A stretch of DNA of 64,000 nt from an uncultured Chloroflexia bacterium (GCA_963790955.1 CAWBQM010000004.1:23643-87642), one strand, 5' to 3'. Shown: positions 11,649 through 37,279, counted from the stretch's first letter. Notes: a model not told the origin generated them from the sequence alone. A program made the numbers and translations.

Positions 11649-11996
11649 TCAGGTTACGGCCAAGGCAACGATACCTCGCGCCAGCAAGAGCAGACCGCCG
11701 ATGATGCTAACGATGCCTAACCACCGGATGGGAACGCCCGCTACGATGCCCCACTCTGGAACGGTTAGCAACATCCCGGCGAGGAGAATGATCGTCGGGA
11801 CAGCGACCTGCTGGGCGGCTTGACCGGCGACCGTGATAAGGAGAGCAGAAGTTACGATCGCGAGACCACCTAAGGCAAGCGGTAGCTGATGTCCCCAGAT
11901 CAATCTGCCACGACGCCACAATATGAACCACCGCGCAACGATGGCCGTTGGCACAAAGAGGGCGACGAAGGCTGCGGCTGTTTCTGCACTTGTCAT
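11649..11996 (-). CDS. small polytopic membrane protein (first gene after the rhs toxin; immunity candidate)
   Basis: A 115-aa protein with four predicted TM helices. Its ATG overlaps the rhs TGA as ATGA (11993-11996), which suggests translational coupling. Confidence 0.55.
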   Translation of the reverse strand: MTSAETAAAFVALFVPTAIVARWFILWRRGRLIWGHQLPLALGGLAIVTSALLITVAGQAAQQVAVPTIILLAGMLLTVPEWGIVAGVPIRWLGIVSIIGGLLLLARGIVALAVT

Positions 11997-14371
11997 GGCA
12001 CTAGCACGGGTGGCGGGGCGGGGATTGGTGCGATCGGACCGATTGGCGGCACGGGAGGCAACGGGAAGTCAGGCCCGGACGCGTTACTCGCATCGGGCGC
12101 GTTACGGCGGTCCCCAGTGCAATAGAGAATCGACTGCTGCACGTATCCATAATTGTTGATAACCGCGTACCCATTGTAGGCGGCGTTCAGCAACAGCAGG
12201 ACATCGAGACCTGGGACAAGCTCTCCACCAAAGAGGAACGCGCCGAGGGATGCCGCCGCTGATCCAACTGCAACGAACTCAAGCACCACCTGGCCTGCAG
12301 CGTTTAGGCACTTGACCGCGATGGCTGGTGGGCTATCGCCCCCCAGCGCCTGTGACTTCTGTCCTGATGGGTCGATCACTCCCGTTGGATCGTTGACAGC
12401 GTAGGAGTAGCGGTTCAGCGTCTGACAGGCTCGTGGATTACCCGAGAACGTGTCTCTGCTCATGAAGCGTCCCAGGCTCGGATCGTAGTAGCGGGCCCGC
12501 AGGTACACGAGGCCGCTGGCGTCCGTGGGTTCGCCGGTGAAGCCGTACGGCTGGTCGGATGTACCGGTGGTGCTCGTCGGGGTGCCCCAGGCGTCGGTGC
12601 GGTAGGTGGCGGTGACCGCGCCTGAGGCGTCGGTGATCGATCTGGTCGAGCCCAGGCGATCGGTGTGGTAGACCTCGAGGGCTGCGCCCTGTACGGCGTA
12701 GGCGAGGCCCAGGCCGTACACGTACTTGCGCGTGCCGTCGTCGAGCGTGACCGGCAGGCTGCGGTTGGGGTCGGACACGTACGTGATCGTGGGATCGGTG
12801 CCGACCTGGCGGCTGACCCGGAGCCCGTCGCCGGCGTACGCGTATGTTTCGGTGGTGCCGGCCACGGTCGCGCTCGTGATGCGGTTGGCCTGGTCGTAGG
12901 CGAACGTGTCGGCGCCCTTGGCGGTCGTGTTGCCGGCCGCGTCGACGGTGAGGCTCATGGCGCCGGCGGCGGTGATCCGGTCGGCTCGGTCGTACGTGGA
13001 GCTCTGCGTGGTCCCATCGGTCACGCTCACTCGGTTGCCGACCGGATCGTAGCCATAGGTCGGTGCGCCGTCGGGCCCGAGGACCGAGGTCAGCCGGTAC
13101 AGGTGATCGTAGGCGTACGTCGAGGCGTCGAGCCCGGGCCCGCGCACGAAGATGTCGCTCGTGTTGTTCGTGTCGCCCGCGACGAGGTTCGACGCGACCG
13201 ACTGGAAGGCGACCGTGCCCGCGTCGGCGCTCAGCCACGGATCCTGGCTCGTGCCGTTGCCGGGCGTGCCGTCGGTCGCGATCGAGAAGCGGGTGTTGAT
13301 GCCCGACGCCAGATCGCGCACGAACACGTCCGAGCGGTTGTTCGTGTCGCCGGCGATGAGGTTCGTGGCATTGGAGGCGAAGCCGAGCTTCGAGCCGTCG
13401 GAGCTGAGCGATGGGTCGGAGCTGTCCTTGTTGCCCTGGACACCGGCGTCGCTGACCGAGGCCCGGATCGTGACCCCGGTCGCGAGCGTGTGCACGAAGA
13501 CGTCGGTCTTGGCGTTGGTGTCGCCGGTCACGAGGTTCGTGGCCGCCGACTCGAAGGCGAGCGTGCTGCCATCACCGCTGATCGCGCCATCGTCGCTGGC
13601 GCCGTTGGCCTGGCCGCCCGAGCTCGAGACCGAGACCCGCGTCGTCGTGCCCGCCACGCGGTCGTACACGAACATGTCGGTCACGCCGTTCGTGTCGCCG
13701 GCCACCAGGTTGGTCGCATCCGATTCGTACAGCACGTAGCGACCGTCGTCGCTGATCAGGGGCCGGTCGCTCTTGGCGTTCGACTGGCTGCCGTCGGAGG
13801 CGACCGAGACCCGCGTCGTCGTATTCGTCTGACGATCGCGCAGGAAGATGTCGGCCACACCGTTGGTGTCACCGCTGATCAGGTTCGTGGCGTCGGACTT
13901 GAACGCCACCCAGCGCCCGTCGGCCGAGAGGACCGGGTAGTACGACGCGCCGTTGGCCTGGGCGCCCGAGCTACTGACCGAGACCCGCTCCACCGCTCCG
14001 GTCACGAGATCCTTGACGAACGTGTCCCAGGCCGTGCCGTTGGTGTCGTTGGCGACGAGGTTACTGGCCTGGCTGCGGAACGCAGCGTAGCGGCCGTCGG
14101 CACTGATCGAGCCGTCGTCGGCACGCGCGTTGCCGATCGTCCCGTCGGACGCCGAGTCGGCGGCCACGATGCCACCGGTCAGGCGATCCTTGACGAACAC
14201 GTCGTCGCCGTTGTTCGTGTCGTTGGTGACGAGGTTGGACGCGGACGAGCGGAACGTGACGTATCGGCCGTCCGAGCTGATGAACGCCTTGTCCGATACG
14301 CCGTTGCCCTGGCCATGGGTCGAGGACTCGGACACGCGCTCGGTGCCGACCGTGGCGCCACCGGCGCCCAC
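11993..14371 (-). CDS. RHS-repeat polymorphic toxin with N-terminal PD40/TolB-like beta-propeller repeats and variable C-terminal toxin domain
   Basis: There are about nine repeats of the form DGRYVAF.S.ASNLV.GDTNG..D.FV.D (PD40-like), then YD repeats (YAYDHLYRLTSV, YGYDPVGNRVSV, FAYDQANRITS). The RHS core ends at RARYYDPSLGRFMSRDTFSG ... NDPTGVIDPSGQ. A hydrophobic CT of about 138 aa follows, lying in 57% GC DNA. The start is a GTG. The reading frame stays open upstream as far as the permease stop at 14519. Confidence 0.85.
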   Translation of the reverse strand: MGAGGATVGTERVSESSTHGQGNGVSDKAFISSDGRYVTFRSSASNLVTNDTNNGDDVFVKDRLTGGIVAADSASDGTIGNARADDGSISADGRYAAFRSQASNLVANDTNGTAWDTFVKDLVTGAVERVSVSSSGAQANGASYYPVLSADGRWVAFKSDATNLISGDTNGVADIFLRDRQTNTTTRVSVASDGSQSNAKSDRPLISDDGRYVLYESDATNLVAGDTNGVTDMFVYDRVAGTTTRVSVSSSGGQANGASDDGAISGDGSTLAFESAATNLVTGDTNAKTDVFVHTLATGVTIRASVSDAGVQGNKDSSDPSLSSDGSKLGFASNATNLIAGDTNNRSDVFVRDLASGINTRFSIATDGTPGNGTSQDPWLSADAGTVAFQSVASNLVAGDTNNTSDIFVRGPGLDASTYAYDHLYRLTSVLGPDGAPTYGYDPVGNRVSVTDGTTQSSTYDRADRITAAGAMSLTVDAAGNTTAKGADTFAYDQANRITSATVAGTTETYAYAGDGLRVSRQVGTDPTITYVSDPNRSLPVTLDDGTRKYVYGLGLAYAVQGAALEVYHTDRLGSTRSITDASGAVTATYRTDAWGTPTSTTGTSDQPYGFTGEPTDASGLVYLRARYYDPSLGRFMSRDTFSGNPRACQTLNRYSYAVNDPTGVIDPSGQKSQALGGDSPPAIAVKCLNAAGQVVLEFVAVGSAAASLGAFLFGGELVPGLDVLLLLNAAYNGYAVINNYGYVQQSILYCTGDRRNAPDASNASGPDFPLPPVPPIGPIAPIPAPPPVLVP

Positions 14372-14518
14372 CGCGGACAGGACGTTGCCGACCGGGTCGA
14401 GCGTATACGCGTGCTGCTCGAAGACGGTCGAGCCGAGCTTGTGGACGATCGAGGTCAGCCGGGCGTCATTGTCGTAGCCGTACGTGGCCGTCGTCGTTTC
14501 TAGGCCCAGCCACGTTGG

Positions 14519-15490
14519 TTAGGTTGGCCGTCGGCGGTTGACGACGATGGCGGCGCCGACGAGACCGACCAAACCAACCGACCCGAATAGCGCGATGTCG
14601 TACAAGATCCACTGGAGGGCTTCGGACTGCGGAATCCCCAACGCAACGGGCTCGTAGCCGCGGTCCCCCAGCCACTGGTCGCTGCTTTCTTGAGGAGCCA
14701 CGCCGGATGGCACAAGCGCGAGTGCAGCCTCCTCGTTGAGAATGCTTCCATCGGGTGCGCGCCAACCCTGGTTAGTTTGCACTGCAGCGACCAGGTTCGA
14801 GTTCTGGTCGCCGATCACAGTCGCCGGTCGAGTCTGGATCCACGCTTGATGGGCCAGACTGGCTCCATAGTCAAGCGCTAGCACGAGGGCGACCCCGACG
14901 ATGAACGCTGGCAACGTGCGGCCCATGACCGCGCCAAGCAGCAATCCCACACAGAATCCCGCCAACGCTCGTCCGAGGACGATCGGACCATGGAGGGTCA
15001 TGTCATTGACGGCGGTATTGAGCCACGGCTGGCGCGTCGCCTCGAGGCGATCGGCCGCGATCGCCGCGAAGGCCACGGCAAGACCCAGCAGCACGAGCAC
15101 CGGCACCACCTGTCGCGCGAGCCATCGCAGGCGCGAAGGGGCGAGGAACCAGGCGGTCTGCGCGGTCCGCGCTTCGAGCTCGCGGCCCACGAGCGGCACG
15201 CCGCCGAGGAGGCCGACCGCGAACGGCAGGACCGCCATCGCGGCGAAGACCTTGCCGGCCTCGGACTCGTTGATCTGCGCGAACGCGTTGACCGGACCGT
15301 AGCAGTCGCCCGCACTCTGAGGGCCGGCGCTCAGCCACTGCTGGAAGCAGCCGGCCGGGACATGGACCGCGAGCAGCCGCTCGTTGACGAGCAGCGCGGC
15401 CGCCCCCAGGACGAGCGCCGCGAGCGCGGCGGCGCCGACCTCGAAGCGGTGCAGCTTGAGCGTGAGTCGGACCGATCGGAGCCGCATCAC
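14519..15490 (-). CDS. ABC-2 type transporter permease (module 1)
   Basis: A 323-aa protein with six TM helices and a large extracytoplasmic loop. It is a paralog of permeases at 23236..24192, 18926..19873 and 19879..20955, and it overlaps the ATPase stop. Confidence 0.8.
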   Translation of the reverse strand: MMRLRSVRLTLKLHRFEVGAAALAALVLGAAALLVNERLLAVHVPAGCFQQWLSAGPQSAGDCYGPVNAFAQINESEAGKVFAAMAVLPFAVGLLGGVPLVGRELEARTAQTAWFLAPSRLRWLARQVVPVLVLLGLAVAFAAIAADRLEATRQPWLNTAVNDMTLHGPIVLGRALAGFCVGLLLGAVMGRTLPAFIVGVALVLALDYGASLAHQAWIQTRPATVIGDQNSNLVAAVQTNQGWRAPDGSILNEEAALALVPSGVAPQESSDQWLGDRGYEPVALGIPQSEALQWILYDIALFGSVGLVGLVGAAIVVNRRRPT

Positions 15491-16341
15491 GCGGCCTCCT
15501 CCCCCGACCGGCCCGGGCGGCCGCGAGGTACCCGAGCACGACCTCCTCGAGGGTTGCCGGCCGGCCGATCTCGGCGCCGTGCACGAGGGCGAGCGGCTCC
15601 CCGCTCGGGACCGGCGAAGCTGCCGATCGCCGCCCGCCCGTCGAGCGCGGCCGCGTCGACGGTGCGATGCTCGGCGCGGGCCGACGCGACGTCACGGTCG
15701 AGCAGTAGCCGCCCGCCCGAGAGCACGACGAGCCGATCGCACGCCTGCTCGACGTCGGTCACGATGTGCGACGAGAGCAAGACCGTCGAGCCGTTGGCCC
15801 GGACGTCCTCGACGAGCACGGTCAGGAAGTCGCGCCGGGCGAGCGGGTCGAGGTTCGCGAGGGGCTCGTCGAGGAGCAGCACCGGCGCCCGCGTCCCGAG
15901 CGCAAGCGCGAGCGAGACCTGGGCCTGCTCGCCTCCGGACAGATCGCCGATCGGCCGGTTGCCGGAGAGGCCGACGTCGTGGATGCGCGCGAGCGCGTGG
16001 TCGCGGTCGAACGTCGGGCGGCTCACCCGCGCGAGATCGAGATGGTCGTCGATCTTGAGCCCGCGATACAGCGCGACGCCCTGGGGCACGTAGCCGACCG
16101 AGCCCACCGCCCGGGCTCGGTCGCGCTGGGGATCGACGCCGGCGACGAGGACGCGACCCTCGTCCGGACGCTCGAAGCCCAAACATGCCCGAATCAGTGT
16201 CGACTTGCCGGCGCCGTTGGGGCCGACGAGGGCGGTGATCGAGCCGCCTGGCACGGTCAGCGACACGTCCCGGCATGCCCACGGCCGGGAGCGTCGGTAG
16301 CGGCGTCCGAAGTGCTCCGTGACGAGCGGTCGTTCTTCCAC
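15487..16341 (-). CDS. ABC transporter ATP-binding protein (module 1; locally frame-altered C-terminus)
   Basis: Walker A (GPNGAGKST), ABC signature (LSGGEQ), Walker B (LLLDEP). About 90% identical to module 2 except for a roughly 30-aa C-terminal stretch read in another frame (an extra G at ~15610, compensated near ~15510). Confidence 0.8.
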   Translation of the reverse strand: MEERPLVTEHFGRRYRRSRPWACRDVSLTVPGGSITALVGPNGAGKSTLIRACLGFERPDEGRVLVAGVDPQRDRARAVGSVGYVPQGVALYRGLKIDDHLDLARVSRPTFDRDHALARIHDVGLSGNRPIGDLSGGEQAQVSLALALGTRAPVLLLDEPLANLDPLARRDFLTVLVEDVRANGSTVLLSSHIVTDVEQACDRLVVLSGGRLLLDRDVASARAEHRTVDAAALDGRAAIGSFAGPERGAARPRARRRDRPAGNPRGGRARVPRGRPGRSGEEAA

Positions 16342-16544
16342 GAGCCGAGTTCCTAATGCGCCAACGGTCGAGTGCGGGCCGGGCTCGATCGAGAGACCAT
16401 CCTGGCCGGGCGGCCGCTGCCGGCTAGAAGCATTCTGGGTCTGCGAATCCCTGCTATCAGCTCCAGCGCGTGAGGGAGTGAGGTCCTCCGGGCATGCCGC
16501 ATGAGTGCGTGGGGCGTGGCTGCCGTAAGACTACCGCAGCAGGG

Positions 16545-16931
16545 TCACGTACTTGGACCCTGAGGACACGTTGATGTGTATGTCCATTTGAAGGAACTGA
16601 CTGTGTCGTTGTACGAACCGTAGTTGCTGGAGTATGTGTTTCCAGAGGCGCTGTATGGGCTGGGAAGCTGGTTCGAATATCCAGCGTCACGATATTGATG
16701 GATCCAGTAATGACAGTTCGAGTTATACACATGGAAGCTGCTGAAGCAATCGTTGAGATCGTATGGCCAATCCAGCCCCGATCCGGAGCAATGTGGGAAT
16801 GCCACCTGGCTCAAGTCGCTCTCACCATACGGGTAGCAATAGGTAACCGAGTTGCCGCCGTATCCTGTATTCTCCCAGAAGGTCACATATGCCCCGCTGC
16901 AAGAAGCTGCAGCGGAAGGCACAAGAACGAG
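16545..16931 (-). pseudogene. small Cys-rich secreted betagamma-crystallin-like protein, copy 1, 3' (mature-domain) part, separated from its signal peptide by IS256
   Basis: The mature domain is CSGAYVTFWENTGYGGNSVTYCYPYG ... CHYWIHQYRDAGYSNQ ... STCPQGPST (six Cys, Greek-key-like W-x4-Y-x-G motif), in 50% GC DNA. Its native signal peptide lies on the other side of the IS (18372..18458). Confidence 0.6.
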
Positions 16932-18371
16932 TGGCGTCCCCCCGAGTGGTGGGATTTGAGCGAGGCTCCTGACCTGCGCTGACATCGCGCAGCGAGGGGG
17001 CCACCGGTGTGATTCTCAGCGTGTCTCTTAGCCGGAGCACGTGAGGTTCACCGATGGCCCTGTCACAGTCTGCCCTGTCCGAGCTGCTCGACGCGATCCG
17101 CGCGGGCGGCAGCGAGGACGTCCTGCGCGAGGCGATGACACTCGTCCTCCAGGAGCTGATCGAGCTCGAGGCGGCCCAGGCGATCGGCGCCGGCCGGTAC
17201 GAGCGGACCGACGAGCGCTCGACCCACCGCAACGGCAGCCGCAGTCGGCTCCTTTCGACCAAGGCCGGCGACGTCGAGCTGCGCATCCCCAAGCTCCGCC
17301 AGGGCTCGTTCTTCCCGGCGCTCCTGGAGCCGCGGCGGCGGATCGACCGAGCCCTGTGGGCGGTCGTCATGGAGGCCTACGTCCACGGCGTCAGCACGCG
17401 CAAGGTCGACGACCTGGTGACCGCCCTCGGGATCGACGCCGGGATCAGCAAGAGCGAGGTATCCCGGATCTGTGGCGAGCTCGACACGGTCGTGGCGACG
17501 TTCCGTGACCGACCGCTCGGTCACACCCGCTTCCCGTACGTCTTCCTCGACGCGACGTACGTCAAGGCCCACGACGGCGCGTCGGTGGTCAGCAAGGCGA
17601 TCGTCGTCGCGACCGGGGTGACCGCGAAGGGCGATCGTGAGGTCCTCGGGCTCGCGGTCGGCGACAGCGAGGATGGCGCCTTCTGGACCGCGTTCCTGCG
17701 CTCGCTCCGGGCGCGCGGCCTGGCCGGCGTGCGGCTTGTCATCAGCGACGCCCACGAAGGCCTCAAGGCGGCGATCGGGGCCGTCCTCCTGGGTGCCGCG
17801 TGGCAGAGGTGCCGGGTCCACTTCCTGCGCAACGTGCTGACCCGGATCCCCAAGGGCAGCGCCGAGATGGTGCTGGCTGCGATCCGAACCATCTTCGCCC
17901 AGCCCGACGCGGCATCGGTCAGCGAGCAGCTTGACGAGATCGCGGAGCGACTCGAGCCTCGTTTCCCGGTCGTCGCCGCGATGCTCGCCGAGGCCAAGGA
18001 GGACGTCACGGCGTTCACCGCGTTCCCGGTCGGCCACTGGCGCAAGGTCTGGTCGACGAACCCGTTGGAGCGGGTCAACCGCGAGATCAAGCGGCGGACT
18101 GACGTGGTCGGCATCTTTCCGAACGAAGCGGCGATCCTGCGGCTGGCTGGTGCGGTCCTGCTCGAGGTCCACGACGAGTGGGCGATCGCCGACCGGCGCT
18201 ATCTGGCCGAAGGCTCGATGGCGAGGCTTGACCCGCCCGCCGAAGATGGTCAGACCAAGGAGGTGGAGCGAGCGAAGACCGTCCTGCTGGCGTCCTGAGC
18301 GACGCCTTCGACACCGTCGCTGAGCATCACGACGGACCGCTCATTTCCCACCACTCCAGCGGCCACGGCCC
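16932..18371 (+). mobile_element. IS256-family insertion sequence (about 1440 bp) with 8-bp target-site duplication AAGAACGA
   Basis: Imperfect terminal inverted repeats (left gtggcgtccccccGAGTGGTGGGATTTGAGCG; right reverse-complement gggccgtggccgctgGAGTGGTGGGAAATGAGCG). AAGAACGA is duplicated at 16924..16931 and 18372..18379, whereas the intact paralog at 25741 has a single copy. Confidence 0.8.
17054..18298 (+). CDS. IS256-family (Mutator-like) transposase
   Basis: A 414-aa protein with the Transposase_mut signature (FPYVFLDATYVKAH ... VISDAHEGLKAAI ... WQRCRVHFLRN). Confidence 0.9.
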   Translation: MALSQSALSELLDAIRAGGSEDVLREAMTLVLQELIELEAAQAIGAGRYERTDERSTHRNGSRSRLLSTKAGDVELRIPKLRQGSFFPALLEPRRRIDRALWAVVMEAYVHGVSTRKVDDLVTALGIDAGISKSEVSRICGELDTVVATFRDRPLGHTRFPYVFLDATYVKAHDGASVVSKAIVVATGVTAKGDREVLGLAVGDSEDGAFWTAFLRSLRARGLAGVRLVISDAHEGLKAAIGAVLLGAAWQRCRVHFLRNVLTRIPKGSAEMVLAAIRTIFAQPDAASVSEQLDEIAERLEPRFPVVAAMLAEAKEDVTAFTAFPVGHWRKVWSTNPLERVNREIKRRTDVVGIFPNEAAILRLAGAVLLEVHDEWAIADRRYLAEGSMARLDPPAEDGQTKEVERAKTVLLAS

Positions 18372-18458
18372 AAGAACGAATAGCCATGCCGAAAGAAACA
18401 ACGAGCCGACAACCACAACATGCGGACGCCGTCGGCGTCGCTGTGCGAGATTGGACAT
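18372..18458 (-). pseudogene. 5' fragment (signal peptide) of the betagamma-crystallin-like gene, copy 1
   Basis: It encodes MSNLAQRRRRRPHVVVVGSLFLSAWLFVL. This is contiguous in frame with LVPSAAASCSG ... at 16931 if the IS is removed. Confidence 0.5.
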
Positions 18459-18925
18459 CCTCGAGTCCTCCTCCTGTGAAGGTCCACGGTCGTCGCACGC
18501 GAACTCGAGTATACTACGCGTGTCAAGAGTCACTGAACCTGCCAGTACAGTTGCTAACGACCTGTGGCTAGCTCCCCGCCCCCGGAGCTCTCGTCATGTT
18601 GCCACGGGAATCGCCCTTCCGAGATCCACGGACTCAGTTTGTGGCCTCTATACCCTTCTGCCTGACCCATTCATCGACGAGGCAAATGTCAAGGGCTCAG
18701 GTCGCGGACGCACGTGGACTTGAGATGGGAAACTGGTTCGATCGCAGTGTCGACGGCAGCCACTTCAGATCGGCCAGATGATCCCGACAGGCAGACGGAT
18801 CGTCCACCCCTCTCTGCCAGCCGCGATGGGATCAGCGCTCACCGAAGTCGCCACGGCGCGAGGTCAGGATCGGCAAAGCGGCCCTCTCTGGATGTCCGTC
18901 GCACGTCCTTCACGCCAAGTACACC

Positions 18926-19873
18926 TCAGCCTGGTCGGGACCTGCTCAGCCCGACCACCGACGCCACGAGGAGCACGATCGCGCCGCCAGCAAGGCTCGC
19001 GCTCTCACGGAACACCGAGTCCGGATAGCGGCTCGCGTCCCAGCCGGCGTTGAGCTGGCGATAGCCGCGAGCCGAGTACCAGGCGATGAAAACCGCGTCG
19101 TCGTTGACGAGGACACCCTGGGCGTTGAAGCGCGGAAAGCCATTCTCGCGGGCCACATCCTGCGCCAGGTGAAAGGAACCGTCGGGCGCCTCGAGCGCGA
19201 CACTCCACTGGTACGAGCCGGGCGTGACGGCCGCAGGGTTGCCGGGATCAGCCGGATCACCGAGTACCTGCATGGGCATGAGGTAGCCGACGCCACTGGC
19301 CCACTCGAGTCCGTTGTACAGGATCACGACGGCAACCGCGGTGACGAGGAGCGCCGGCAGGATACGGCGCACGAGGACCCCCGCCAGTACCGCGATGCCG
19401 AACGCCGCCAGGCCGCGTGCCACGAGCGGCGCCCCGCGCCATTGATCGCCGTAGAAGTTGAACGTGGGATCGATGCGCTGCCACTCCCACAGGAGCCGGT
19501 TGGCGGCGAGCGCCGCCGGCACGAGCAGCACGACCACGAGCACGAGCGCGGGCACCAGGCGCCAAATGAACCAGCGCAGCCGACTGCCCGACAGTGACCA
19601 GGCCAGGCGACCGGTGCCGGTCTCGAGCTCGCGCGCGAGGAGCGGCGCGCCGAGCAGGCCGCCCACGACGAACGGCAGCGTCGCGAGGAGCGGGTAGAGC
19701 CAGGTATCGAGTGGGTTGCCGATCCGGTAGAAGGCGCTCGTGGTGGGACAGATCGTGTCGACGCAGTTGTCCGCGACCCGGATGTTGCGCAGGAGCATGG
19801 TCACGACGATCGTCGCGCCGGTCACCCCGATCGCCGCCCCGAGCGCGCCCAGGAGCTCCGGCCGGCCGACGCC
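18926..19873 (-). CDS. ABC-2 type transporter permease (module 3, second permease)
   Basis: Paralogous to the module 1 and 2 permeases (LARELETGTGRLAWSLSGSRLRW ...). The N-terminal 160 aa of the 477-aa ORF is R-rich junk; the real start is near MTSGVGRPELL. Confidence 0.7.
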   Translation of the reverse strand, partial: GVGRPELLGALGAAIGVTGATIVVTMLLRNIRVADNCVDTICPTTSAFYRIGNPLDTWLYPLLATLPFVVGGLLGAPLLARELETGTGRLAWSLSGSRLRWFIWRLVPALVLVVVLLVPAALAANRLLWEWQRIDPTFNFYGDQWRGAPLVARGLAAFGIAVLAGVLVRRILPALLVTAVAVVILYNGLEWASGVGYLMPMQVLGDPADPGNPAAVTPGSYQWSVALEAPDGSFHLAQDVARENGFPRFNAQGVLVNDDAVFIAWYSARGYRQLNAGWDASRYPDSVFRESASLAGGAIVLLVASVVGLSRSRPG

Positions 19874-19878
19874 CGAGG

Positions 19879-20955
19879 TCATACGCCAGCCCAGCCAGAC
19901 GCTGCTCCGACGCCAGCCGCCGCGGTTTGGTTCGGCGGCCGTGGCGCCGTAATCGAGCGCCGCGCGTCGAGCTCGAGTCCGATCCCGGGAGCGGGTCGGC
20001 GGCGGCGGACCGCGACGAGCGCGAGGAGGCCGGCCAGGAGCGCGACGCCGCCTGTCGCCGCCGCCTCGCGCGCCTCGACCTCCGGATAGTGGACGCCGCT
20101 GATGCCCAGGAACACCCGGTGCCAGCCGACATGGAACAGCCACAGCGCGTAGCCCGGCGAATCGATGACCTGCGCCTCGGGTGGTCGCAGCGGCGCCGAC
20201 TCGTCGAACGTGAGCTGGGTCCCGTCGGGCAGCTCGAAGCCCTCGCCGAATGCGAGCGGCACGGCCTGGGTCTCCTGGTCGACCTCGGCGCGGTCGACCG
20301 CCTCTCGGGGCAGCCAGTACGGGCGCACATTCGCCGCGAGCGCGAGCCCGACCAGACACAGCCCGCCCGCGAGGAGCAGCGCCGGCAGGGTTCGGCCCAG
20401 CACGACCCCGGCCGCGAGCCCCAGGCCGAACGCGACCAGGCCGCGCACGACGACGAGGATGCCCCGCGAGCCGACGTCGTAGAAGGACTGCGACGGATCG
20501 AACTGGGGATAGATCGCGGCCTCGAGCCGATCGCCCGCGAGCGCCGGGCCGACGAGCAGGAGCACGACCAAGAGGGCCGCCGGCCAGACCCGCCAGGCCA
20601 GCCAGCGCACGCGCGACGCGGTCAGCGACCAGGCCAGTGGTGCGCTCCGGCGCTCGAGCTCGCGGGCCACGAGCGCCGGGCCATAGAGCAGGCCGATGAC
20701 GATCGGGATGAGCGACGCCGCGAACAGGAGCGGCGACCCGAACGACTGCGAGAGGTTGTAGAAGTCGACCACCTCACACGTGCGCAGGCCCGGGCACTGA
20801 CCGGCCCGGATCGCGTCGAGCTGCGCGGCGACCGCGAGCATGCCCAGGGTCAGCGCCGCCGAGAGGCCGATGCCGGCGGCGATCTCGAAGCGCGCGGTCC
20901 GCCAGAACAGCTGCACGCTCCGGGTCATGGCACCGAGAGCCTCAGGCGCCGTCGG
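19879..20955 (-). CDS. ABC-2 type transporter permease (module 3, first permease)
   Basis: Start at MTRSVQLFWRTARFEIAAG. It has six TM helices and a large external loop, and overlaps the ATPase stop by about 14 nt. Confidence 0.7.
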   Translation of the reverse strand, partial: PTAPEALGAMTRSVQLFWRTARFEIAAGIGLSAALTLGMLAVAAQLDAIRAGQCPGLRTCEVVDFYNLSQSFGSPLLFAASLIPIVIGLLYGPALVARELERRSAPLAWSLTASRVRWLAWRVWPAALLVVLLLVGPALAGDRLEAAIYPQFDPSQSFYDVGSRGILVVVRGLVAFGLGLAAGVVLGRTLPALLLAGGLCLVGLALAANVRPYWLPREAVDRAEVDQETQAVPLAFGEGFELPDGTQLTFDESAPLRPPEAQVIDSPGYALWLFHVGWHRVFLGISGVHYPEVEAREAAATGGVALLAGLLALVAVRRRRPAPGIGLELDARRSITAPRPPNQTAAAGVGAASGWAGV

Positions 20956-21847
20956 GGGCCGCGGCCGCCGCCATCGCCGGTGCGGCGAGGTAGCCCAGCA
21001 CGAGCTCCTCGAACGAGGGCTCGCGCCCGATGTCCGTGGCGCGCACGAGGGCGAGCTCGACGTGATCGGCCGGGAAGCGCCCGACCGGGACGAGGTCGGC
21101 GGGCAGGTCGCCGGCCGGCACGACGCGGTGCTCGGCTCGGGCGGTGGCGATCGGGGCATCGAGTCGCACCCGGCCGGCGACGAGCACGACCAGGTCCTCA
21201 CAGGCGTCCTCGATGTCGCGCACGATGTGGGAGCTGATGACGACCGTCGCAGCCGATGCGGCGGCCTCACGCCGGAGCACGTCGAGGAACTCCCGTCGCG
21301 CGAGTGGATCGAGGCTCGCGAGCGGCTCGTCGAGGAGCAGGATGCGCGCCTCCGCGGCGAGCACGAGCGCGAGTCCGAGCTGGGCGCGCTGGCCACCCGA
21401 CAGCTCGTCGGCCCGGCTGCGGCGGGGCAGGCCCAGCTCGTGGACCCGGGCCAGGGCGGCGTCGCGGTCCAATCCCCGGCGCAGGTACGCCGCCAGATCG
21501 ACGTGCTCCTCGACGCTCAGCTCGTCATACAGCGAGGGTTGCTGGGGGATGTACCCGAGCGAGCGGATCGCCTCGCCCCGGCGGCGCCACGGATCGACCC
21601 CGGCCGCCGACACCTGGCCGCGGGTCGCGTGCTCGAAGCCCAGCCAGGTGCGCAGGAGTGTCGACTTGCCGGCGCCGTTGGGTCCGACCAGGGCCACGAT
21701 CCGACCCGGTGCGATCGCGAGGCTGACGTCCTCGAGCGCCCAGTGCCCGCGCCGGTAGCGCTTCCACAGGCCGCTCGCGGCCAGGGCGGGCTGTGCGGCC
21801 AGAGCAGTCGACGTGGGCGCCATCACCGAAGACGGTACCAGCCGCAA
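20942..21847 (-). CDS. ABC transporter ATP-binding protein (module 3)
   Basis: Walker A GPNGAGKST, signature LSGGQRAQ, Walker B LLLDEP. The C-terminal tail FEELVLGYLAA is shared with the module 2 ATPase. Confidence 0.8.
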   Translation of the reverse strand: MRLVPSSVMAPTSTALAAQPALAASGLWKRYRRGHWALEDVSLAIAPGRIVALVGPNGAGKSTLLRTWLGFEHATRGQVSAAGVDPWRRRGEAIRSLGYIPQQPSLYDELSVEEHVDLAAYLRRGLDRDAALARVHELGLPRRSRADELSGGQRAQLGLALVLAAEARILLLDEPLASLDPLARREFLDVLRREAAASAATVVISSHIVRDIEDACEDLVVLVAGRVRLDAPIATARAEHRVVPAGDLPADLVPVGRFPADHVELALVRATDIGREPSFEELVLGYLAAPAMAAAAAPDGA

Positions 21848-22149
21848 AGCCCAGAACTACGTCCCCACTGCGGGCAGAGGCTCGTCGAGTAGATTGAGCT
21901 CACGGTGTTGTCGAACCCCGTCGGCATCGTGTTGCGCGTGGTCGGCCCACACACATTGAACGAGGAGCCAGTCCCAAGCGAGCCTGTCCAGAGTACAAAC
22001 CCGTGCCCAGTGACGTTCGTCGACTTCATGCTTGAGATGTTGTTGTCGTACGGTGACGACAGGGAACCCATGCTCGTCCCGTAGTCCATCAGTAGCTCGG
22101 ATCCGGTCAGGTTCGTTCCGGTCCAGAATTGGCCTTCGTTCGCAGCCAA
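21823..22149 (-). CDS. divergent paralog of the betagamma-crystallin-like small protein (module 3), apparently lacking a signal peptide
   Basis: FVLWTGSLGTGSSFNVCGP and FDNTVSSIY are similar to FWENTGYGGNSVTYCYP and YNDTVSSFKW of the other copies. It sits in 50% GC DNA. Its 5' end abuts the truncated integrase at 22137, and its stop overlaps the probable ATPase start (21823). Confidence 0.4.
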   Translation of the reverse strand: MAANEGQFWTGTNLTGSELLMDYGTSMGSLSSPYDNNISSMKSTNVTGHGFVLWTGSLGTGSSFNVCGPTTRNTMPTGFDNTVSSIYSTSLCPQWGRSSGLCGWYRLR

Positions 22150-22505
22150 CGGAAGAACTGCTGGAGACTGCGGTAGGGGTTCGCCGCGGAGGCAGGACGG
22201 AGACGCGTGAGCTGGTCGGCGATGAAGGCGTCCACGTGCTCACGGCGGATCGCCGCCACGGTCCGGGGCATGCCCTCCTCGGCCAGGAACGCGTCGAAGC
22301 GGCCCACAGCGTCGAAGTAGGCGTGGATTGTGGCCGGCGTCCGGTCGCCCGCGTGGACGTGACGACGAAGGAGGCGCCGTTCGCGGCGAGGTCGTCGACT
22401 GCGGTAGACTCGGCCGCGCCGACCTGGCTGGGCGGCGTCGGATGGTCGTTGATCGAGCGTCTGGGCATCACCCACGTCGATCGACAGTTCGAGCGCCATG
22501 GTCAA
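22137..22505 (-). pseudogene. truncated, frameshifted tyrosine-integrase N-terminal fragment (diverged copy of int at 36232..37191)
   Basis: [30 protein letters not shown] ... followed, in another frame, by [32 protein letters not shown] ... SLQQFFRWL. This is about 85-90% aa identity to int residues 1-109, then it stops. Confidence 0.7.
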
Positions 22506-22554
22506 GCCGGGGAGGCCGGCGCCAGTTAGTGCTCTAACTGAGCGTGAACCTCGT

Positions 22555-22591
22555 GGGCCCGTAGCTCAACGGTAGAGCAAGTGACTCTTAA
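22555..22591 (+). other. partial tRNA-Lys copy (5' half up to the anticodon loop); att-like junction
   Basis: It is identical to nt 1-37 of the tRNA at 37280 (GGGCCCGTAGCTCAACGGTAGAGCAAGTGACTCTTAA). The 89-nt int-proximal spacer is also conserved. Confidence 0.7.
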
Positions 22592-23235
22592 GTCCGTGGC
22601 TCGAAACGCCATGGTCGTCGTTCGTGAGACGCCCGCGAAATCGGCCGAATCATTTGCTCTCCAACGCGTTCATGAGACCAGCGGCCGCGTCGACAACGAG
22701 GGGGCCTGCCGGCTCGCGCCGGCGGAGACTGGGCTCGAGCACGCGGTTATGTCTCGCCGGGGTCGTCCTGACTTGAGGGCCGAGGCGCTGGGCGAGATCG
22801 CTCTAGCTGGCGTGCATGCGCGGCCCGGGTGATCAATTCGCCCGACTGCGGATCGCCAGGACATCGCTGCTCGCGACGAAGCCACCATCGCCAGCCGTCG
22901 ACAACAATCTACGTCGGGTCGACGAAAAGTCCTCCCGCTCGGGCAACCTGCAATTCGCGCCTGCTTATCCGGAACAGGCTGTGGGGCGACCTCGACCGCG
23001 GCACCGATGGGCCGGAATTTGTGTGAGCCGGCCACGGACACCAGCTGCCAGTCGATCGCTGGGGGCGACGGCCGATTGGGCGGACCACTAGAAATTCCCC
23101 ATCTCGGTCCTGATCCAGGTCCGCGTCGCGCTCAATTGGTGCCACTTCCAGACTCTCATGTCCCAGTTGCCGTTGCCTTGCGGGAGGCCAAAGATCAGGA
23201 GCTGTCGGTAGCCGTCTCTGCTAGGCCTATGTACC

Positions 23236-24192
23236 TCAGGTTGGCCGTCGGCGGTTGACGACGATGGCGGCGCCGACGAGACCAACGAAACCAACCGACC
23301 CGAACAGCGCAATGTCGTACAAGATCCATTGGAGGGCTTCGGACTGCGGAATCCCCAACGCAACGAGCTCGTAGCCGCGGTCCCCCAGCCACTGGTCACT
23401 GCTTTCTTGAGGAGCCACGCCGGGTGGCACAAGCGCGAGTGCTGCCTCCTCGTTGAGAATGCTTCCATCGGGTGCGCGCCAGCCCTGGTTAGTTTGTACT
23501 GCAGCGACCAGGTTCGAGTTCTGGTCGCCGATCACAATCGCCGGTCGAGTCTGGATCCACGCTTGATGGGCCAGACTGGCTCCATAGTCAAGCGCGAGCA
23601 CGAGGGCGACCCCGACGATGAACGCTGGCAACGTGCGGCCCATGACTGCGCCAAGCAGCAATCCCACACAGAATCCCGCCAACGCTCGTCCGAGGACGAT
23701 CGGACCATGGAGCGTCATGTCATTGACGGCGGTATTGAGCCAGGGCTGGCGCGTCGCCTCCAGCCGGTCGGCCGCAAGCGCGGCGAACGTCACCACGACG
23801 CCCAGCAGCACCAGCACGGGCGCCACCTGGCGAGCCAGCCAGCGCAAGCGCGAGCCGGACAGGGACCACGCGGTCTGCGCGGTCCGGGCCTCGAGCTCGC
23901 GGCCGACGAGTGGCACGCTGCCGAGCAGCCCGACGAGGAACGGCAGGACGGCCATGGCCGCGAAGACCTTGCCCGCCTCGGACTCGTTGATCGTGGCGAA
24001 CGCGTTGACCGGGCCATAGCAGTCGCCGGCCTGATCGGGCCCGGCGCTGAGCCACTGCTGGAAGCAGCCGGCCGGGACGTGCACCGCGAGCAGGCGCTCG
24101 TTCACGAGCAGCGCGGCCACCCCGAGGACGAGCGCCGCGAGCGCGGCGGCGCCGACCTCGAAGCGATGCAGCTTGAGCGTGAGCCGGATCGA
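23236..24192 (-). CDS. ABC-2 type transporter permease (module 2)
   Basis: It starts at MLRSIRLTLKLHRFEV and is about 90% identical to module 1. The longer ORF 23236..25065 in the track is an alternative-frame artefact across the ATPase. Confidence 0.8.
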   Translation of the reverse strand, partial: SIRLTLKLHRFEVGAAALAALVLGVAALLVNERLLAVHVPAGCFQQWLSAGPDQAGDCYGPVNAFATINESEAGKVFAAMAVLPFLVGLLGSVPLVGRELEARTAQTAWSLSGSRLRWLARQVAPVLVLLGVVVTFAALAADRLEATRQPWLNTAVNDMTLHGPIVLGRALAGFCVGLLLGAVMGRTLPAFIVGVALVLALDYGASLAHQAWIQTRPAIVIGDQNSNLVAAVQTNQGWRAPDGSILNEEAALALVPPGVAPQESSDQWLGDRGYELVALGIPQSEALQWILYDIALFGSVGFVGLVGAAIVVNRRRPT

Positions 24193-24203
24193 GCGCAGCA
24201 TCG

Positions 24204-25157
24204 TCACGCGGTCTCCTCCCGGCGGCCGGTTCGCGCGGCCGCGAGATATCCGAGTACGACCTCCTCGAGCGTGGTCGGGCGGCCGATCGGGCCATCGCGC
24301 ACGAGGGCGAGCGGCTCCCCGCTCGGACCGGCGAAGACACCGATCGCCACCCGCCCGTCGAGCGTGGCCGCGTCGACCGTGCGGTGGTCGGCCCTGGCCG
24401 CCGCCGTGTCGACGTCGAGCAGCACCCGCCCGCCCGAGAGCACGACGAGTCGATCGCAGGCCTGCTCCACGTCGGTCACGATGTGCGACGAGAGGAGCGC
24501 GGTCGAGCCGTTGGCGCGGACGTCCTCGACGAGCACGGTCAGGAAGTCGCGCCGGGCCAGCGGATCGAGGTTCGCGAGCGGCTCGTCGAGCAGCAGCAGC
24601 GGGGCCCGGGTGCCGAGCGCAAGCGCCAGCGAGACCTGGGCCTGCTCGCCGCCCGACAGGTCGCCGATCGGCCGGTTCGCGGTCAGCCCGACCGCTCGGA
24701 TGCGCGCCAGCGCGTGCTGGCGGTCGAACGTCGGGCGGCTGACGCGGGCCAGATCGAGATGGTCGTCGATCGTGAGCCCGCGGTACAGCGCGCCGCCCTG
24801 GGGCACGTAGCCGACCGAGCCCACCGCCCGGGGACGATCGCGCCGGGGATCGATGCCGGTGACGAGCACCCTGCCCTCGTCCGGGCGTTCGAAGCCGAGG
24901 CATGCCCGGATGAGCGTCGACTTGCCGGCGCCGTTGGGGCCCACGAGGGCGGTGATCGAGCCGGCCGGCACGGCCAGCGACACGTCGCGGCACGCCCACG
25001 GCCGGTTGCGTCGGTAGCGGCGCCCGAAGCGCTCGGCGACGAGCGGTGGATCCTGCACGAGCCAAGTTCCTAATGCGCCACGATCCGGAGAGACCATCTC
25101 GGCCGCGGGGCCGCTGTCGGCCAGAAGCATTCTGCGTGTGTGACCGAAGGCCTGCAA
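24204..25157 (-). CDS. ABC transporter ATP-binding protein (module 2)
   Basis: Walker A, signature and Walker B are all intact. The C-terminal approximately 80-aa extension (SGEPLALVRDGPIGRPTTLEEVVLGYLAA) is conserved. Confidence 0.8.
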   Translation of the reverse strand: MQAFGHTRRMLLADSGPAAEMVSPDRGALGTWLVQDPPLVAERFGRRYRRNRPWACRDVSLAVPAGSITALVGPNGAGKSTLIRACLGFERPDEGRVLVTGIDPRRDRPRAVGSVGYVPQGGALYRGLTIDDHLDLARVSRPTFDRQHALARIRAVGLTANRPIGDLSGGEQAQVSLALALGTRAPLLLLDEPLANLDPLARRDFLTVLVEDVRANGSTALLSSHIVTDVEQACDRLVVLSGGRVLLDVDTAAARADHRTVDAATLDGRVAIGVFAGPSGEPLALVRDGPIGRPTTLEEVVLGYLAAARTGRREETA

Positions 25158-25359
25158 TCAGCCCCAGCGTGTCTGAGTGAACTCCCCCGAGGATGCCGCA
25201 TGAGTGCGTAGCGCGGTGGCTGCCGTAAGGGCCTGTAGCCGAATTCCTCCGATCGATCGCGCCGGATCTGGCCCGAGATGCCGCTCTCCGGCATTTGAGC
25301 CGCGCGGTGGATCGTGCTCGGCGAATTCGACCACAGACCCTAAGACTACCGCAGCAGGG

Positions 25360-25825
25360 TTACGTACTTGGACCCTGAGGACACGTTGATGTGTATGTCC
25401 ATTTGAAGGAACTGACTGTGTCGTTGTATGAACCGTAGTTGCTGGAGTATGTGTTTCCAGAGGCGCTGTATGGACTGGGAAGCTGGTTCGAATATCCAGC
25501 ATCACGGTATTGATGGATCCAGTAATGGCAGTTCGAGTTGTAGACATGGAAGCTGCTGAAGCAGTCGTTGAGATCGTATGGCCAATCCAGCCCCGATCCG
25601 GAGCAATGTGGGAATGCAACCTGGCTCAAGTCGCTCTCACCATACGGGTAGCAGTAGGTGACCGAGTTGCCGCCGTATCCTGTATTCTCCCAGAAAGTCA
25701 CAGATGCCCCGCTGCAAGAAGCGGTAGCGGAAGGCACAAGAACGAATAGCCATGCTGGAAAGAAGCAACGACATTACAAGCACAACATACGGACGCCTTC
25801 GGCGTCCTTGTGCGACATTGGCCAT
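25360..25825 (-). pseudogene. betagamma-crystallin-like small secreted protein, copy 2, with +1 frameshift between signal peptide and mature domain
   Basis: The signal peptide MANVAQGRRRRPYVVLVMSLLLSSMAIRS is in one frame (25637..25825). The mature domain VPSATASCSGASVTFWENTGYGG ... (25360..25737) is in the +1 frame. Compared with the copy 1 remnant there is one extra nucleotide (atgcTggaaag versus atgccgaaag). Confidence 0.6.
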
Positions 25826-26374
25826 CCTCGAGTCCTCCTCTTGTGAACGCCGAGGGCCACCATCGTTCCCGCAAACTCGAGTTTAGTACGAGTGTCAATC
25901 GTCAGTGGAGAGGTTGTCTCGATGCTCCGTGAATTAGTCAGGGCCAACTGCTCAGTGAATTTGTCAGTCAGAGAGGGACCTGGCTGCTCGGGACGACTGG
26001 CTCGTCGGCCTCCGGGGCCCACTTGGTCGGAGCACGGGCTCCGGCGCCCAGCGGCGCGACATCGGGGAGGCGCGACGACCGGATGCGCGGGCACTCCCGC
26101 GACCCGGCCGTCCACGTCGGGCCCGTCGCTCGTCGATGCCGAGCCGGCGGAGGCCGGGTGATCCGCTCGCGGTCCCGGGATCACGGGTCGATAGCCGTCG
26201 CCAGCTCATCGGCGATGCGCGCGAGGACCTGATCTCCGAGGACACGTGCGATCCCCACCGGCGCCGTCCGTGGTGCGCCCCAGGTCGATCTGGGCGCCGT
26301 CGACGCGTTCGTCCGCCAGCCCCCGCACCGCCACGCCTTTGGTTTGGGCTGCGCTGCACGCGGGAGCTGTGACG

Positions 26375-26695
26375 ATGACGACACGACGATCACACACCTC
26401 GACGACCCCTCAAAGGCGTCTGACGACCGACGACCCCGAGCGCGCTGAGCGCTCGCTCCGTGGCCGCATCGGGGCGTATCGGCTCCATGCGACCCACGAC
26501 TCGCGCGAGACGTCGCGGCCCGGCCGCCTGGCGTTCCTGGCCTCGTTCGAGCGGCTGGTCGATCCCGACCGGGTCCTGCCCGAGGCCGAGCGCACCAGAC
26601 GGGCGGCCCACGCCCGCTCGGCCCATTTTGCACGTCTGGCCTATCTGTCGGCCCGGGCACGACGGAAACGGGCACGGCGTCGACGCGGACCGTGA
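26375..26695 (+). CDS. hypothetical small basic protein upstream of Replic_Relax (copy A)
   Basis: An approximately 106-aa protein (MTTRRSHT ... LAFLASFERLVDPDRVLPEAERTRRAAHARSAHFARLAYL ...). Its stop overlaps the next gene's start (GTGA). The opposite-strand ORF is a P/R/G-rich artefact. Confidence 0.3.
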   Translation: MTTRRSHTSTTPQRRLTTDDPERAERSLRGRIGAYRLHATHDSRETSRPGRLAFLASFERLVDPDRVLPEAERTRRAAHARSAHFARLAYLSARARRKRARRRRGP

Positions 26696-27515
26696 GGGCA
26701 GTCGCCCGCCGGCCGCTGGTGCGGTCAGGTCCCGGTGTCTCGGCCTGGACCGCCCTGCCCGAGCGCGACCGCCAGCTGCTGCTGTGGCTGATCAGCGGCG
26801 ATGTGGTGACGGCCGAGCTCGCGGCGCTCCTCGCGTACGGTCATCTCCGGGTCGCCCAGCGGCGCCTGGCGCGTCTGGTCGAGTACGGCCTGGTCTCGGG
26901 CTTCTGGGCGGCCAACCGCCAGCGACCTCGTGGCCGCTACGCGTATGCCCTGGCCAAGACCGCCCGGGTCCAGCTCGAGCAGCTCGTGTGGCCGCAGGGC
27001 CGCCCGGGGCTCGCCGGTGGTGGCATCGTGACGGTCTCGCCGGTCATCCACGGGCTCGCCACGCACGACCTGTTCGCGGTGTTCCTGGCGGCCTCGGATC
27101 CAGCCGGTGAGGTGGGGCTCGCGGGCTGGGTGCCCGAGCGCCCGCTCGTGCGGCTCACGAGCTATGGTGACCTGCGGCCCGACGCCTTGGCGGTGGTTCG
27201 CTCGGGCGAGCGCCTGATCGTGCTGTTCATCGAACGTGATCTCGGCACCGAGCGCGGTGGCGTGCTCAGCGACAAGGTGCGCGGCTACGATCGACTGTAC
27301 CGCCAGCGCGTCGCCGCCCATCCGCTCCACGTCGGCTTCGTGGTCGAGAGCCACCGCCGCGCGTACGCGATCCGCCGGGTCCTCGCCCGAGCCGCCGACG
27401 AGACCCGCCTCGGGGTGTGGGTGACGACCGAGGCCGATCTGCGCGCCGATCCCTATGGCTGTCTCTGGGTATCGCCCGCGATCGATCCGGTGGCCACGGC
27501 CGATCTGGCGGCCAA
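26692..27515 (+). pseudogene. replication-relaxation (Replic_Relax) family protein, copy A, 3'-truncated by the IS30-family insertion
   Basis: LPERDRQLLLWLISGDVVTAELAALL ... RVAQRRLARLVEYGLVSGF matches the Replic_Relax N-terminal wHTH. It is identical to copy B up to aa ~274 and then diverges at 27515. Confidence 0.7.
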
Positions 27516-33408: not shown

Positions 33409-33714
33409 CTAGCTTTCTCCGCGCCGAGACACTAGGGGCGCGAGTCGGAATCGCATAGAACAGTCGAGGGTTCTCGGCGCTGCTGTCCCGCTCGACCATG
33501 CCCCGCCTCGTGTCCGATCAGGCGGCCGTCGGCGTCAACTGCTGCCCGGCGGCCCAGACGAAGCCGGCCAGCTTCCGCGCGACGACGATGCTCCCACCGC
33601 CCGATGCCGCCAGACGTACACACATTCCATTGCATTCGGCCGGCTCCGGTCGTAGGGTGAGGCCCTGGCCGTCTCGACAGAGGCGGCGGCGAGCCGCGAA
33701 CTTCCGATGTTGGC

Positions 33715-37191: not shown

Positions 37192-37279
37192 GTCGCAATC
37201 ATCGACTGTTCGAGCGCCATGGTCAAGCTGGGATGGCCGAAATCGCCAGTTAGTTGCTCTAACTGAGCGTGAATCTCGT

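Follow-up and report, generated by a model that had tools for sequence, protein, structure and literature searches.

Microbial Ca2+-binding βγ-crystallins such as spherulin 3a, Protein S, clostrillin, M-crystallin and nitrollin pose a long-standing puzzle, since most are recognised as domains that bind Ca2+ but have not been given a function. Their hallmarks are the Greek-key signature Y/F/W-x4-Y/F-x-G and the Ca2+ motif N/D-N/D-x-x-S/T-S, as defined in PMC3551895. Here we describe a 64-kb stretch of DNA from an uncultured Chloroflexia bacterium (GCA_963790955.1, CAWBQM010000004.1:23643-87642; referred to as the window, with positions counted from its first letter), in which three paralogous modules stand in tandem, each running from a gene for a small secreted protein to an ATP-binding cassette (ABC) ATPase gene and then to one or two permease genes. 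The small protein has the βγ-crystallin fold and belongs to a clade whose genes are linked to those of an ABC-2 transporter. This triad is real, conserved and previously undescribed: no description of it was found in Pfam, NCBIfam, PADLOC, Rfam or the literature searched, with PADLOC returning generic ABC-ATPase similarity only. An earlier reading, made by a model from the DNA alone (the sequence-only reading), had not recognised the triad as a described system, and in this it was right. The tie to a transporter offers a concrete hypothesis for this clade, either as an effector with self-protection or as the extracytoplasmic partner of a transporter, and it gives a first context for the uncharacterised permease family PF26999, which is widespread in uncultured soil Chloroflexota.

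With the microbial crystallins named above, the family described here has in common the W/Y-x4-Y-x-G signature (complete in the first Greek key of the window protein) and both N/D-N/D-x-x-S/T-S motifs. It differs from them in possessing a signal peptide, six conserved Cys residues (three likely disulfides), a domain of ~120 amino acids with extra loops, and a link to an ABC-2 transporter, which has not been described for those proteins; the window protein also has no Pfam Crystall match. The I36 family (SMPI, PF03995), whose members inhibit metalloproteinases through a reactive-site loop, is likewise secreted, disulfide-containing, βγ-crystallin-like and found in high-GC bacteria, but PF03995 matches neither the window protein nor the rest of its ABC-linked clade, and no ABC linkage is known for SMPI. 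WmKT, SKLP, AFP1 and MiAMP1 are likewise small, secreted, disulfide-rich Greek-key proteins; the antimicrobial activity is theirs, they have no sequence similarity to the window protein, and they are not known to have dedicated ABC immunity genes. The lactococcin 972 operon, lcn972-orf2-orf3 (PMC4055356), has the same logic and gene order as proposed here, but it has no sequence relationship to the window genes, its activity is proven whereas ours is proposed only, and its membrane component is of a different type. Neither the small protein nor the permeases gave an NCBIfam or Pfam match to the lactococcin_972 family or to its immunity protein with seven transmembrane (TM) segments. LanFEG, PmtABCD and DrrAB resemble the window transporters in the ATPase (DrrA and PmtA most of all) and in having a six-TM permease, whereas the permease here falls in its own family, PF26999. 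Finally, NosDFY has the same gene order and kinds of component, but there is no homology to it and no nos genes are present here. NosD is a large β-helix protein of a copper-enzyme maturation pathway.

All genes of the array lie on the minus strand, and the IS256-family element found within small gene copy 1 lies on the plus strand. The features, with E values from Pfam or from hidden Markov models (HMMs) of the two families, are as follows.

14519-15490, minus strand: module 1 permease, 323 amino acids ending in RRRPT, six TM by hydropathy, 94% protein identity to the module 2 permease (permease HMM, E 1e-133).
15487-16341, minus strand: module 1 ABC ATPase, damaged, with a +1 indel at ~15609 and a -1 indel at ~15505 (Pfam ABC_tran, E 6e-28).
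16545-16922, minus strand: small gene copy 1, 3' part, comprising the end of the signal peptide and the whole mature βγ-crystallin domain (family HMM, E 4.7e-43).
16931-18371, plus strand: IS256-family insertion sequence (IS), with a transposase at 17054-18298 (Transposase_mut, E 1.6e-139) and the target duplication TCGTTCTT at 16923-16930 and 18372-18379.
18372-18458, minus strand: small gene copy 1, 5' part (MSNLAQRRRRRPHVVVVGSLFLSAWLFVL), with its ATG at 18458 and the Shine-Dalgarno sequence AGGAGGAGG at 18467-18475.
18926-19882, minus strand: module 3 permease B, 318 amino acids, six TM, its ATG overlapping the permease A stop (ATGA) (permease HMM, E 1e-102).
19879-20928, minus strand: module 3 permease A, 349 amino acids, six TM (permease HMM, E 4e-108).
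20942-21847, minus strand: module 3 ABC ATPase, start codon uncertain, conserved C-terminal motif in frame (Pfam ABC_tran, E 1.6e-27).
21823-22149, minus strand: small gene copy 3, a diverged relic with neither signal peptide nor ATG and with 4 of the 6 conserved Cys gone (family HMM, E 1.4e-6).
22144-22591, minus strand: tyrosine-integrase 5' fragment, Pfam Phage_int_SAM only, 86.5% identical to 36866-37316; its junction truncates copy 3.
23236-24201, minus strand: module 2 permease, 321 amino acids, six TM, 100% identical to the database protein P0077 (PF26999, ABC-2_memb_rel).
24204-25157, minus strand: module 2 ABC ATPase, apparently intact, given as the maximal open reading frame (ORF) with its start codon uncertain; LEEVVLGYL motif in frame.
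25360-25737, minus strand: small gene copy 2, mature-domain frame, no signal peptide in frame, 98% protein identity to copy 1 (family HMM, E 3.9e-41).
25758-25825, minus strand: small gene copy 2, 5' part (MANVAQGRRRRPYVVLVMSLLL), with its ATG at 25825, parted from the mature frame by a 1-nucleotide insertion at ~25756-25757.

Modules 1 and 2 had been described as segmental duplicates of about 90% identity, and self-BLAST bears this out at the nucleotide level, with 87.6% identity for the transporter genes (14521-16529 against 23238-25229), 95.8% for the mature small-gene region (16523-16930 against 25338-25745) and 80% for the 5' leader (18367-18535 against 25733-25907). The module 3 ATPase is about 70% identical in nucleotide sequence to that of module 1. 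As had been proposed, module 3 is a diverged version with two permeases, accompanying a single ATPase, and these are 31-33% identical in protein sequence to the module 2 permease. The window contains no extra copies of the small gene, the permease or this type of ATPase. The gap between small gene and ATPase in module 2 (25229-25338) holds ~108 bp that are absent from module 1. No Rfam element was found in 14000-26500, and there is no consensus promoter upstream of copy 2.

The lead gene of each module had been singled out for its low GC content, and we do see 52% GC in the small genes (59% in copy 3) against 68-75% in the transporter genes, with GC at third codon positions of 0.60 against 0.81-0.92. 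Low GC as a sign of foreign origin was considered and rejected, as it mostly reflects amino-acid composition (GC at first codon positions, 0.41) and is seen also in homologues elsewhere. The six Cys residues, the W-x4-Y-x-G motif and the Arg-rich signal peptide noted in the sequence-only reading are all present, together with two NDxxSS motifs in the mature domain, which is rich in Tyr, Ser, Asn and Trp and acidic, with a net charge of ~-6 by sequence count. Across the family, the N-terminus shows a basic n-region, a hydrophobic core and an A-x-A site just ahead of the first conserved Cys. A lipoprotein reading of the A-S-C junction was ruled out, as position -3 is E, S or A and not the Leu of a lipobox, and the A-x-A precedes the Cys. 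An AGGAGG ribosome-binding site lies 8 nucleotides upstream of the small-gene ATG. The stretch of five Arg codons in the signal peptide is a GC-rich palindrome (GGACGCCGAAGGCGTCC at 25791-25807 in copy 2 and GACGCCGACGGCGTC at ~18425-18441 in copy 1, minus strand) beginning 16-18 nucleotides after the first base of the ATG. Homologues elsewhere lack the Arg run, which may be a side effect of an mRNA hairpin or have been selected together with it.

On its own, the window protein gave nothing significant against Pfam, NCBIfam or the PDB sequences, and a word-indexed protein search found one homologue with the single sequence and five with a 34-sequence profile. Exhaustive scanning of 1.84 billion representatives by HMMER, using a profile built from three sequences, returned 70 proteins at E ≤ 1e-3, including nine at E ≤ 1e-10. 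Family members are 140-170 amino acids long and share the motifs [YW]E-x4-G, WNDC[IV]SS, CHY and ND-x2-SS-[IF]-K-W-x-Y-x3-C. The clade of the small protein is rare, consisting of metagenome singletons annotated as hypothetical where they are named at all. The family profile matched solved microbial βγ-crystallins in the PDB with E about 1e-6, and one of the best matches is annotated as a carbohydrate-binding protein (3hzb).

AlphaFold2 modelled the small protein from a 68-sequence alignment with a predicted local distance difference test score (pLDDT) of 90.4, compared to 39 from a 3-sequence alignment. The model has two Greek-key motifs that form a wedge of two β-sheets, as in βγ-crystallins. 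The signature reads W-ENTG-Y-G-G in motif 1 and Y-RDAG-Y-S-N in motif 2, with N in place of the final G, and the family consensus is Y-x4-Y-x-G. Both Ca2+-binding signatures are present at the sequence level, as NDCFSS and NDTVSS, and are nearly invariant in the family. The assignment of the small protein to the βγ-crystallin fold is solid. The sequence-only reading had likened the protein to killer-toxin-like or protease-inhibitor-like proteins of βγ-crystallin fold. No close structural match was found to the killer-toxin fold, with far lower scores for MiAMP1 (6.4), AFP1 (4.9), SKLP (4.2) and WmKT (3.8), and Pfam PF03995 (Inhibitor_I36) matched none of the three window copies at E ≤ 1. Within the wider family, Inhibitor_I36 is matched by 14 of 34 members (best E 1.2e-7), the ABC-linked clade not being among the matches at E ≤ 1.

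The transporter genes have the make-up of an ABC-2 (type V) exporter. In such exporters an ATPase with Walker A, signature and Walker B motifs is encoded separately from a neighbouring six-TM permease with both termini inside, the two being translationally coupled. There is a separate ABC ATPase, recognised by ABC_tran in modules 1 and 3 with the E values listed above, and it is coupled with a six-TM permease: all four window permeases have six TM predicted by hydropathy, and the start and stop codons of permease and ATPase genes overlap or abut. The best NCBIfam matches of the ATPases are DrrA, of daunorubicin resistance, and PmtA, of the PSM exporter, and the lantibiotic-protection ATPase family ranks further down; these matches have E values of 1e-28 to 1e-34 and all fall short of the family cut-offs. 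The permeases share two conserved Cys in outer loop 1, and their TM5 and TM6 are joined by an outer loop of ~85 amino acids. The classical ABC2_membrane Pfam models gave nothing significant against them, with E about 1 only. Their family numbers at least 197 clusters at E ≤ 1e-10, and all of the best 120 listed carry PF26999 (ABC-2_memb_rel); the few named members come from metagenome-assembled genomes (MAGs) of Chloroflexota or Ca. Limnocylindrales.

Looking for intact orthologues beside the ABC pair was a check suggested along with the sequence-only reading, and its outcome was favourable. Six intact close homologues, 36-58% identical to the window protein and situated on independent contigs, all adjoin an ABC_tran gene, and every contig that is long enough to show it has the PF26999 permease as well. 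A further homologue, P0008, was not counted for context because its contig is too short. The gene orders at the six loci are these.

P0001, locus L001: small gene, ATPase, PF26999 permease.
P0003, locus L008, on a 73-kb NCBI soil MAG contig: small gene, ATPase, PF26999 permease.
P0007, locus L014: small gene, ATPase, PF26999 permease.
P0002, locus L003, the closest homologue at 58% identity: ATPase, permease, small gene, the small gene thus being last.
P0005, locus L010: small gene followed by an ABC ATPase, then the contig end.
P0006, locus L012: small gene followed by an ABC ATPase, then the contig end.

Comparison of these loci gives solid grounds for regarding the triad as a real conserved operon. 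First scans of genome contigs and metagenomes gave no match, a second genome-contig scan gave one locus, which lacks the ABC pair, and tblastn against plasmids gave no match.

The conserved pairing bears on one alternative account, in which the small protein either inhibits proteases as I36 (SMPI) does or is a component of wall or spore that binds Ca2+ and has a stabilising role, with an indirect link to the ABC genes through co-regulation or hitch-hiking on a mobile cassette. The Inhibitor_I36 matches in the wider family and the two canonical Ca2+ motifs are in keeping with such a role, as is the setting of P0010, a Chloroflexia MAG member without the ABC pair, which lies ~0.8 kb from a gene for a subtilisin-like S8 protease on the opposite strand (L002, 9175-10887). 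The window protein and its close relatives are, however, without an I36 match, and the same ABC pair adjoins the small gene at six independent loci of considerable divergence and in two gene orders, which is hard to explain without a functional link. We consider this account improbable and rank it third.

Co-occurrence is asymmetric: in this clade the small protein is nearly always found with the ABC pair, whereas the ABC pair is usually found without the small protein. Where a locus was reached through its permease and its upstream sequence could be read, no intact small gene was present. Orphan ATPase-permease pairs at L016 (5201-7125) and L021 (214-2588) are accompanied by divergently encoded partners, a histidine kinase and a LuxR-type response regulator; L019 and L020 resemble module 3 in having an ATPase with two permeases; and L026, with the permease closest to that of the window (58% identity), has neither small gene nor two-component system. 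At L018 (2500-2661), a 5'-truncated small-gene relic that retains the second Greek key only lies directly upstream of an intact ATPase-permease pair, with a methylglyoxal synthase gene on its other side. Small-gene relics beside intact transporters occur in two independent lineages, namely module 3 and L018.

The reading that we rank first, with a probability of roughly 0.4, is that the small protein is a secreted effector and the ABC-2 transporter its self-protection. The protein would leave the cell by the general secretory (Sec) pathway and be cut after the A-x-A site; as it carries its own signal peptide, the transporter would not be needed for its export. Outside the cell it would fold into a disulfide-locked, probably Ca2+-binding, aromatic-rich domain, and this mature domain would act on the envelope of competing or sister cells, either as a protein bacteriocin or as a binder of some envelope component. 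The presumably co-transcribed transporter would guard the producer by clearing the protein, or a membrane-proximal complex with its target, from the cell surface, as the LanFEG, Pmt or Lcn972 ABC genes do. Cells that lose the effector yet keep the transporter would stay protected, which would explain the orphan transporters, the transporters under two-component control and the small-gene relics next to intact transporters. That the transporter widely occurs without the small gene, and hardly ever the reverse in this clade, is what a role in immunity or resistance predicts. The likeness of the ATPases to DrrA, PmtA and the lantibiotic-protection family also speaks for this reading, and supporting context comes from an RHS/PD40 polymorphic-toxin-like gene directly alongside the array.

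The main rival holds that the small protein is an extracytoplasmic accessory of the ABC-2 transporter, either docking on the outer loops of the permease or binding an exported glycan or lipid-linked substrate as an acceptor or lectin. There are precedents for docking, as periplasmic NosD works with NosFY and EnvC/PcsB with FtsEX. The order of secreted protein, ATPase and permease equals that of nosD-nosF-nosY, and the Cys pair of outer loop 1 together with the long TM5-TM6 loop could form a docking site. The richness in Tyr, Trp, Asn and Ser is as seen in carbohydrate-binding modules, in line with the PDB match 3hzb, and the dependence of the small gene on the ABC pair would be equally expected of an accessory subunit; the strong purifying selection described below also fits. 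However, most members of the permease family have no small gene nearby, including the closest one at L026, so the transporter works without it. At L003 the small gene comes after the permease and not at the operon head, and orphan ABC pairs with two-component systems are more typical of resistance modules. On balance we hold an accessory role to be unlikely; if true, type V ABC transporters would gain a new kind of accessory protein.

In this assembly all three small genes are disrupted, each in a different way. Copy 1 is split by an IS256 element as had been read, and the site lies within the signal-peptide coding region. The element has the marks of the IS256 family, namely a Mutator-type DDE transposase, a length of 1441 bp (about 1.3-1.5 kb is usual), imperfect terminal inverted repeats sharing GAGTGGTGGGA, and a perfect 8-bp target duplication (8-9 bp in the family). 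Removal of the IS and of one copy of the duplication gives a 154-amino-acid ORF, MSNLAQRRRRRPHVVVVGSLFLSAWLFVLVPSAAA followed by SCSG...PST. In copy 2 the proposed frameshift is present: at the site corresponding to codons 23-24, where copy 1 reads tcggca, it has one base more (tccagca), but this lies at ~25756-25757 and not at ~25770. An upstream TAA closes the frame of the mature domain, whose first start codon lies past the hydrophobic core, which excludes a signal peptide. The first possible start of copy 3 is a TTG at 22149. Five bases away, at 22144, the similarity to the intact integrase gene (36866-37316) breaks off, which marks a rearrangement junction at the 5' end of copy 3. The lack of a signal peptide and the adjoining junction are thus as the sequence-only reading had them, whereas kinship to copies 1 and 2 is seen at profile level only: copy 3 matches the family HMM over the second Greek key alone, and pairwise BLASTP to copy 2 is not significant (E 0.35).

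The same reading held that the cognate ABC transporters remain intact, and this fails for module 1. In a DNA alignment with module 2, the two indels of the module 1 ATPase put ~35 C-terminal codons out of frame, and a different frame carries the codons for the last 38 conserved residues. The scrambled stretch includes the LEEVVLGYL motif, which is conserved in module 2, in module 3 and in all foreign homologues.

Between copies 1 and 2 the mature domain of the small gene has 13 synonymous and 2 non-synonymous differences, a synonymous excess with P 1e-7 under neutrality. The corresponding synonymous (dS) and non-synonymous (dN) divergences are 0.18 and 0.007, giving a dN/dS of 0.037, compared to 0.14 for the permeases of modules 1 and 2 (dS 0.27, dN 0.037) and 0.25 for the ATPase core (dS 0.32, dN 0.079). 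This low ratio implies that both small genes were functional for nearly the whole time since duplication. The IS insertion and the frameshift are thus very recent, or, in the case of the single-base change, possibly an assembly error.

Several of these observations weigh against an effector guarded by its transporter. No homology ties the small protein to toxicity, and its nearest fold is that of the non-toxic crystallins. The mature protein is acidic, and membrane-active bacteriocins are mostly cationic. The distant family members P0010, P0075, P0019 and P0023 have no ABC neighbour, so the ABC link is specific to one clade of the family. Decay is not confined to the small genes, as the module 1 ATPase is damaged and L001 holds a degraded transporter module, and the pattern is therefore less clean than one of dead cargo and intact transporter. 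The single-base lesion of copy 2 could be an assembly error. The distribution of lesions speaks for the effector, as small genes account for 16% of module coding sequence and hold 3 of the 4-5 lesion events (binomial P 0.015-0.03), but this enrichment is modest and is confounded by their place at the module edges, where they are likelier targets of rearrangement. The substitution pattern indicates that the small protein was beneficial until very recently, with strong purifying selection on copies 1 and 2, and it speaks against any long-standing counter-selection. The earlier proposal that a toxin-like cargo was lost and its immunity kept is accordingly supported in part, by the conserved operon, the asymmetry and the L018 relic, and weakened by the damage to the module 1 ATPase and by the dN/dS of 0.037.

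The lesions might also be read with no reference to function: the whole three-module array may be decaying in an IS-rich island or be misassembled in part, and the pattern would then be a product of chance and position. Such a history would be compatible with any role of the protein, and we think it doubtful as an account of the pattern. The pair of indels in the module 1 ATPase, the edge position of copy 3 beside an integrase fragment, the limited significance of the lesion enrichment and the lack of any period of relaxed constraint all fit it. All three single-base indels (~25757, ~15609 and ~15505) fall within or next to short runs of C or G, a placement typical of long-read consensus errors, and one related locus comes from a long-read MAG project. 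On the other side, base-calling errors cannot account for the IS insertion or the integrase junction, both of which are structural; the copies of a 1.49-kb repeat in another part of the window differ by no indels, so indel error is not rampant; and at L018, an independent locus, a small-gene relic again stands next to intact ABC genes.

Taken to its furthest extent, the effector reading would make this the first bacterial bacteriocin of βγ-crystallin fold: a protein secreted through Sec, held by three disulfides, stabilised by Ca2+ and paired with a PF26999 immunity transporter. It would spread among soil Chloroflexota and other bacteria of high GC content as a mobile cassette capable of tandem amplification, with relics and orphan transporters as the traces of 'immune cheaters'. 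We offer this fuller picture tentatively and regard it as somewhat unlikely in all its parts. If the toxin reading is true, protein bacteriocins would gain a new structural class, and immunity transporters a new family.

Some further observations concern the homologue loci. At L001, a degraded second module (1196-1664), in which an ATPase N-terminus is fused to a permease C-terminus, lies directly upstream of the intact triad, so tandem arrays with decaying copies recur in an unrelated contig. At L014, the intact triad is directly followed downstream by a tatC gene (3480-4226) on the other strand. At L022 and L024, distant members of the family of the small protein lie amid runs of short unannotated ORFs with no ABC genes, possibly mobile or phage-like contexts.

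The array sits in an island that also holds, besides the IS256 element, an IS30-like transposase, integrase copies, a replication-relaxation gene and the RHS/PD40 gene. This last (11993-14518, minus strand) encodes PD40 repeats and a variable C-terminal tail after the RHS core motif, and has no full-length N-terminus; its open frame reaches the stop of the module 1 permease (14519), and the gene could represent the tip of a polymorphic toxin, truncated or orphaned, at the border of the array. An intact tyrosine integrase gene is found at 36232-37290 (minus strand), its 5' 450 bp being 86.5% identical to the fragment at 22144-22591. The 1.49-kb direct repeat (26043-27530 and 33712-35199; 99.7% identity, 0 indels) contains the Replic_Relax gene, and its first copy is followed by the IS30-like transposase (27455-29029; HTH_38 and rve).

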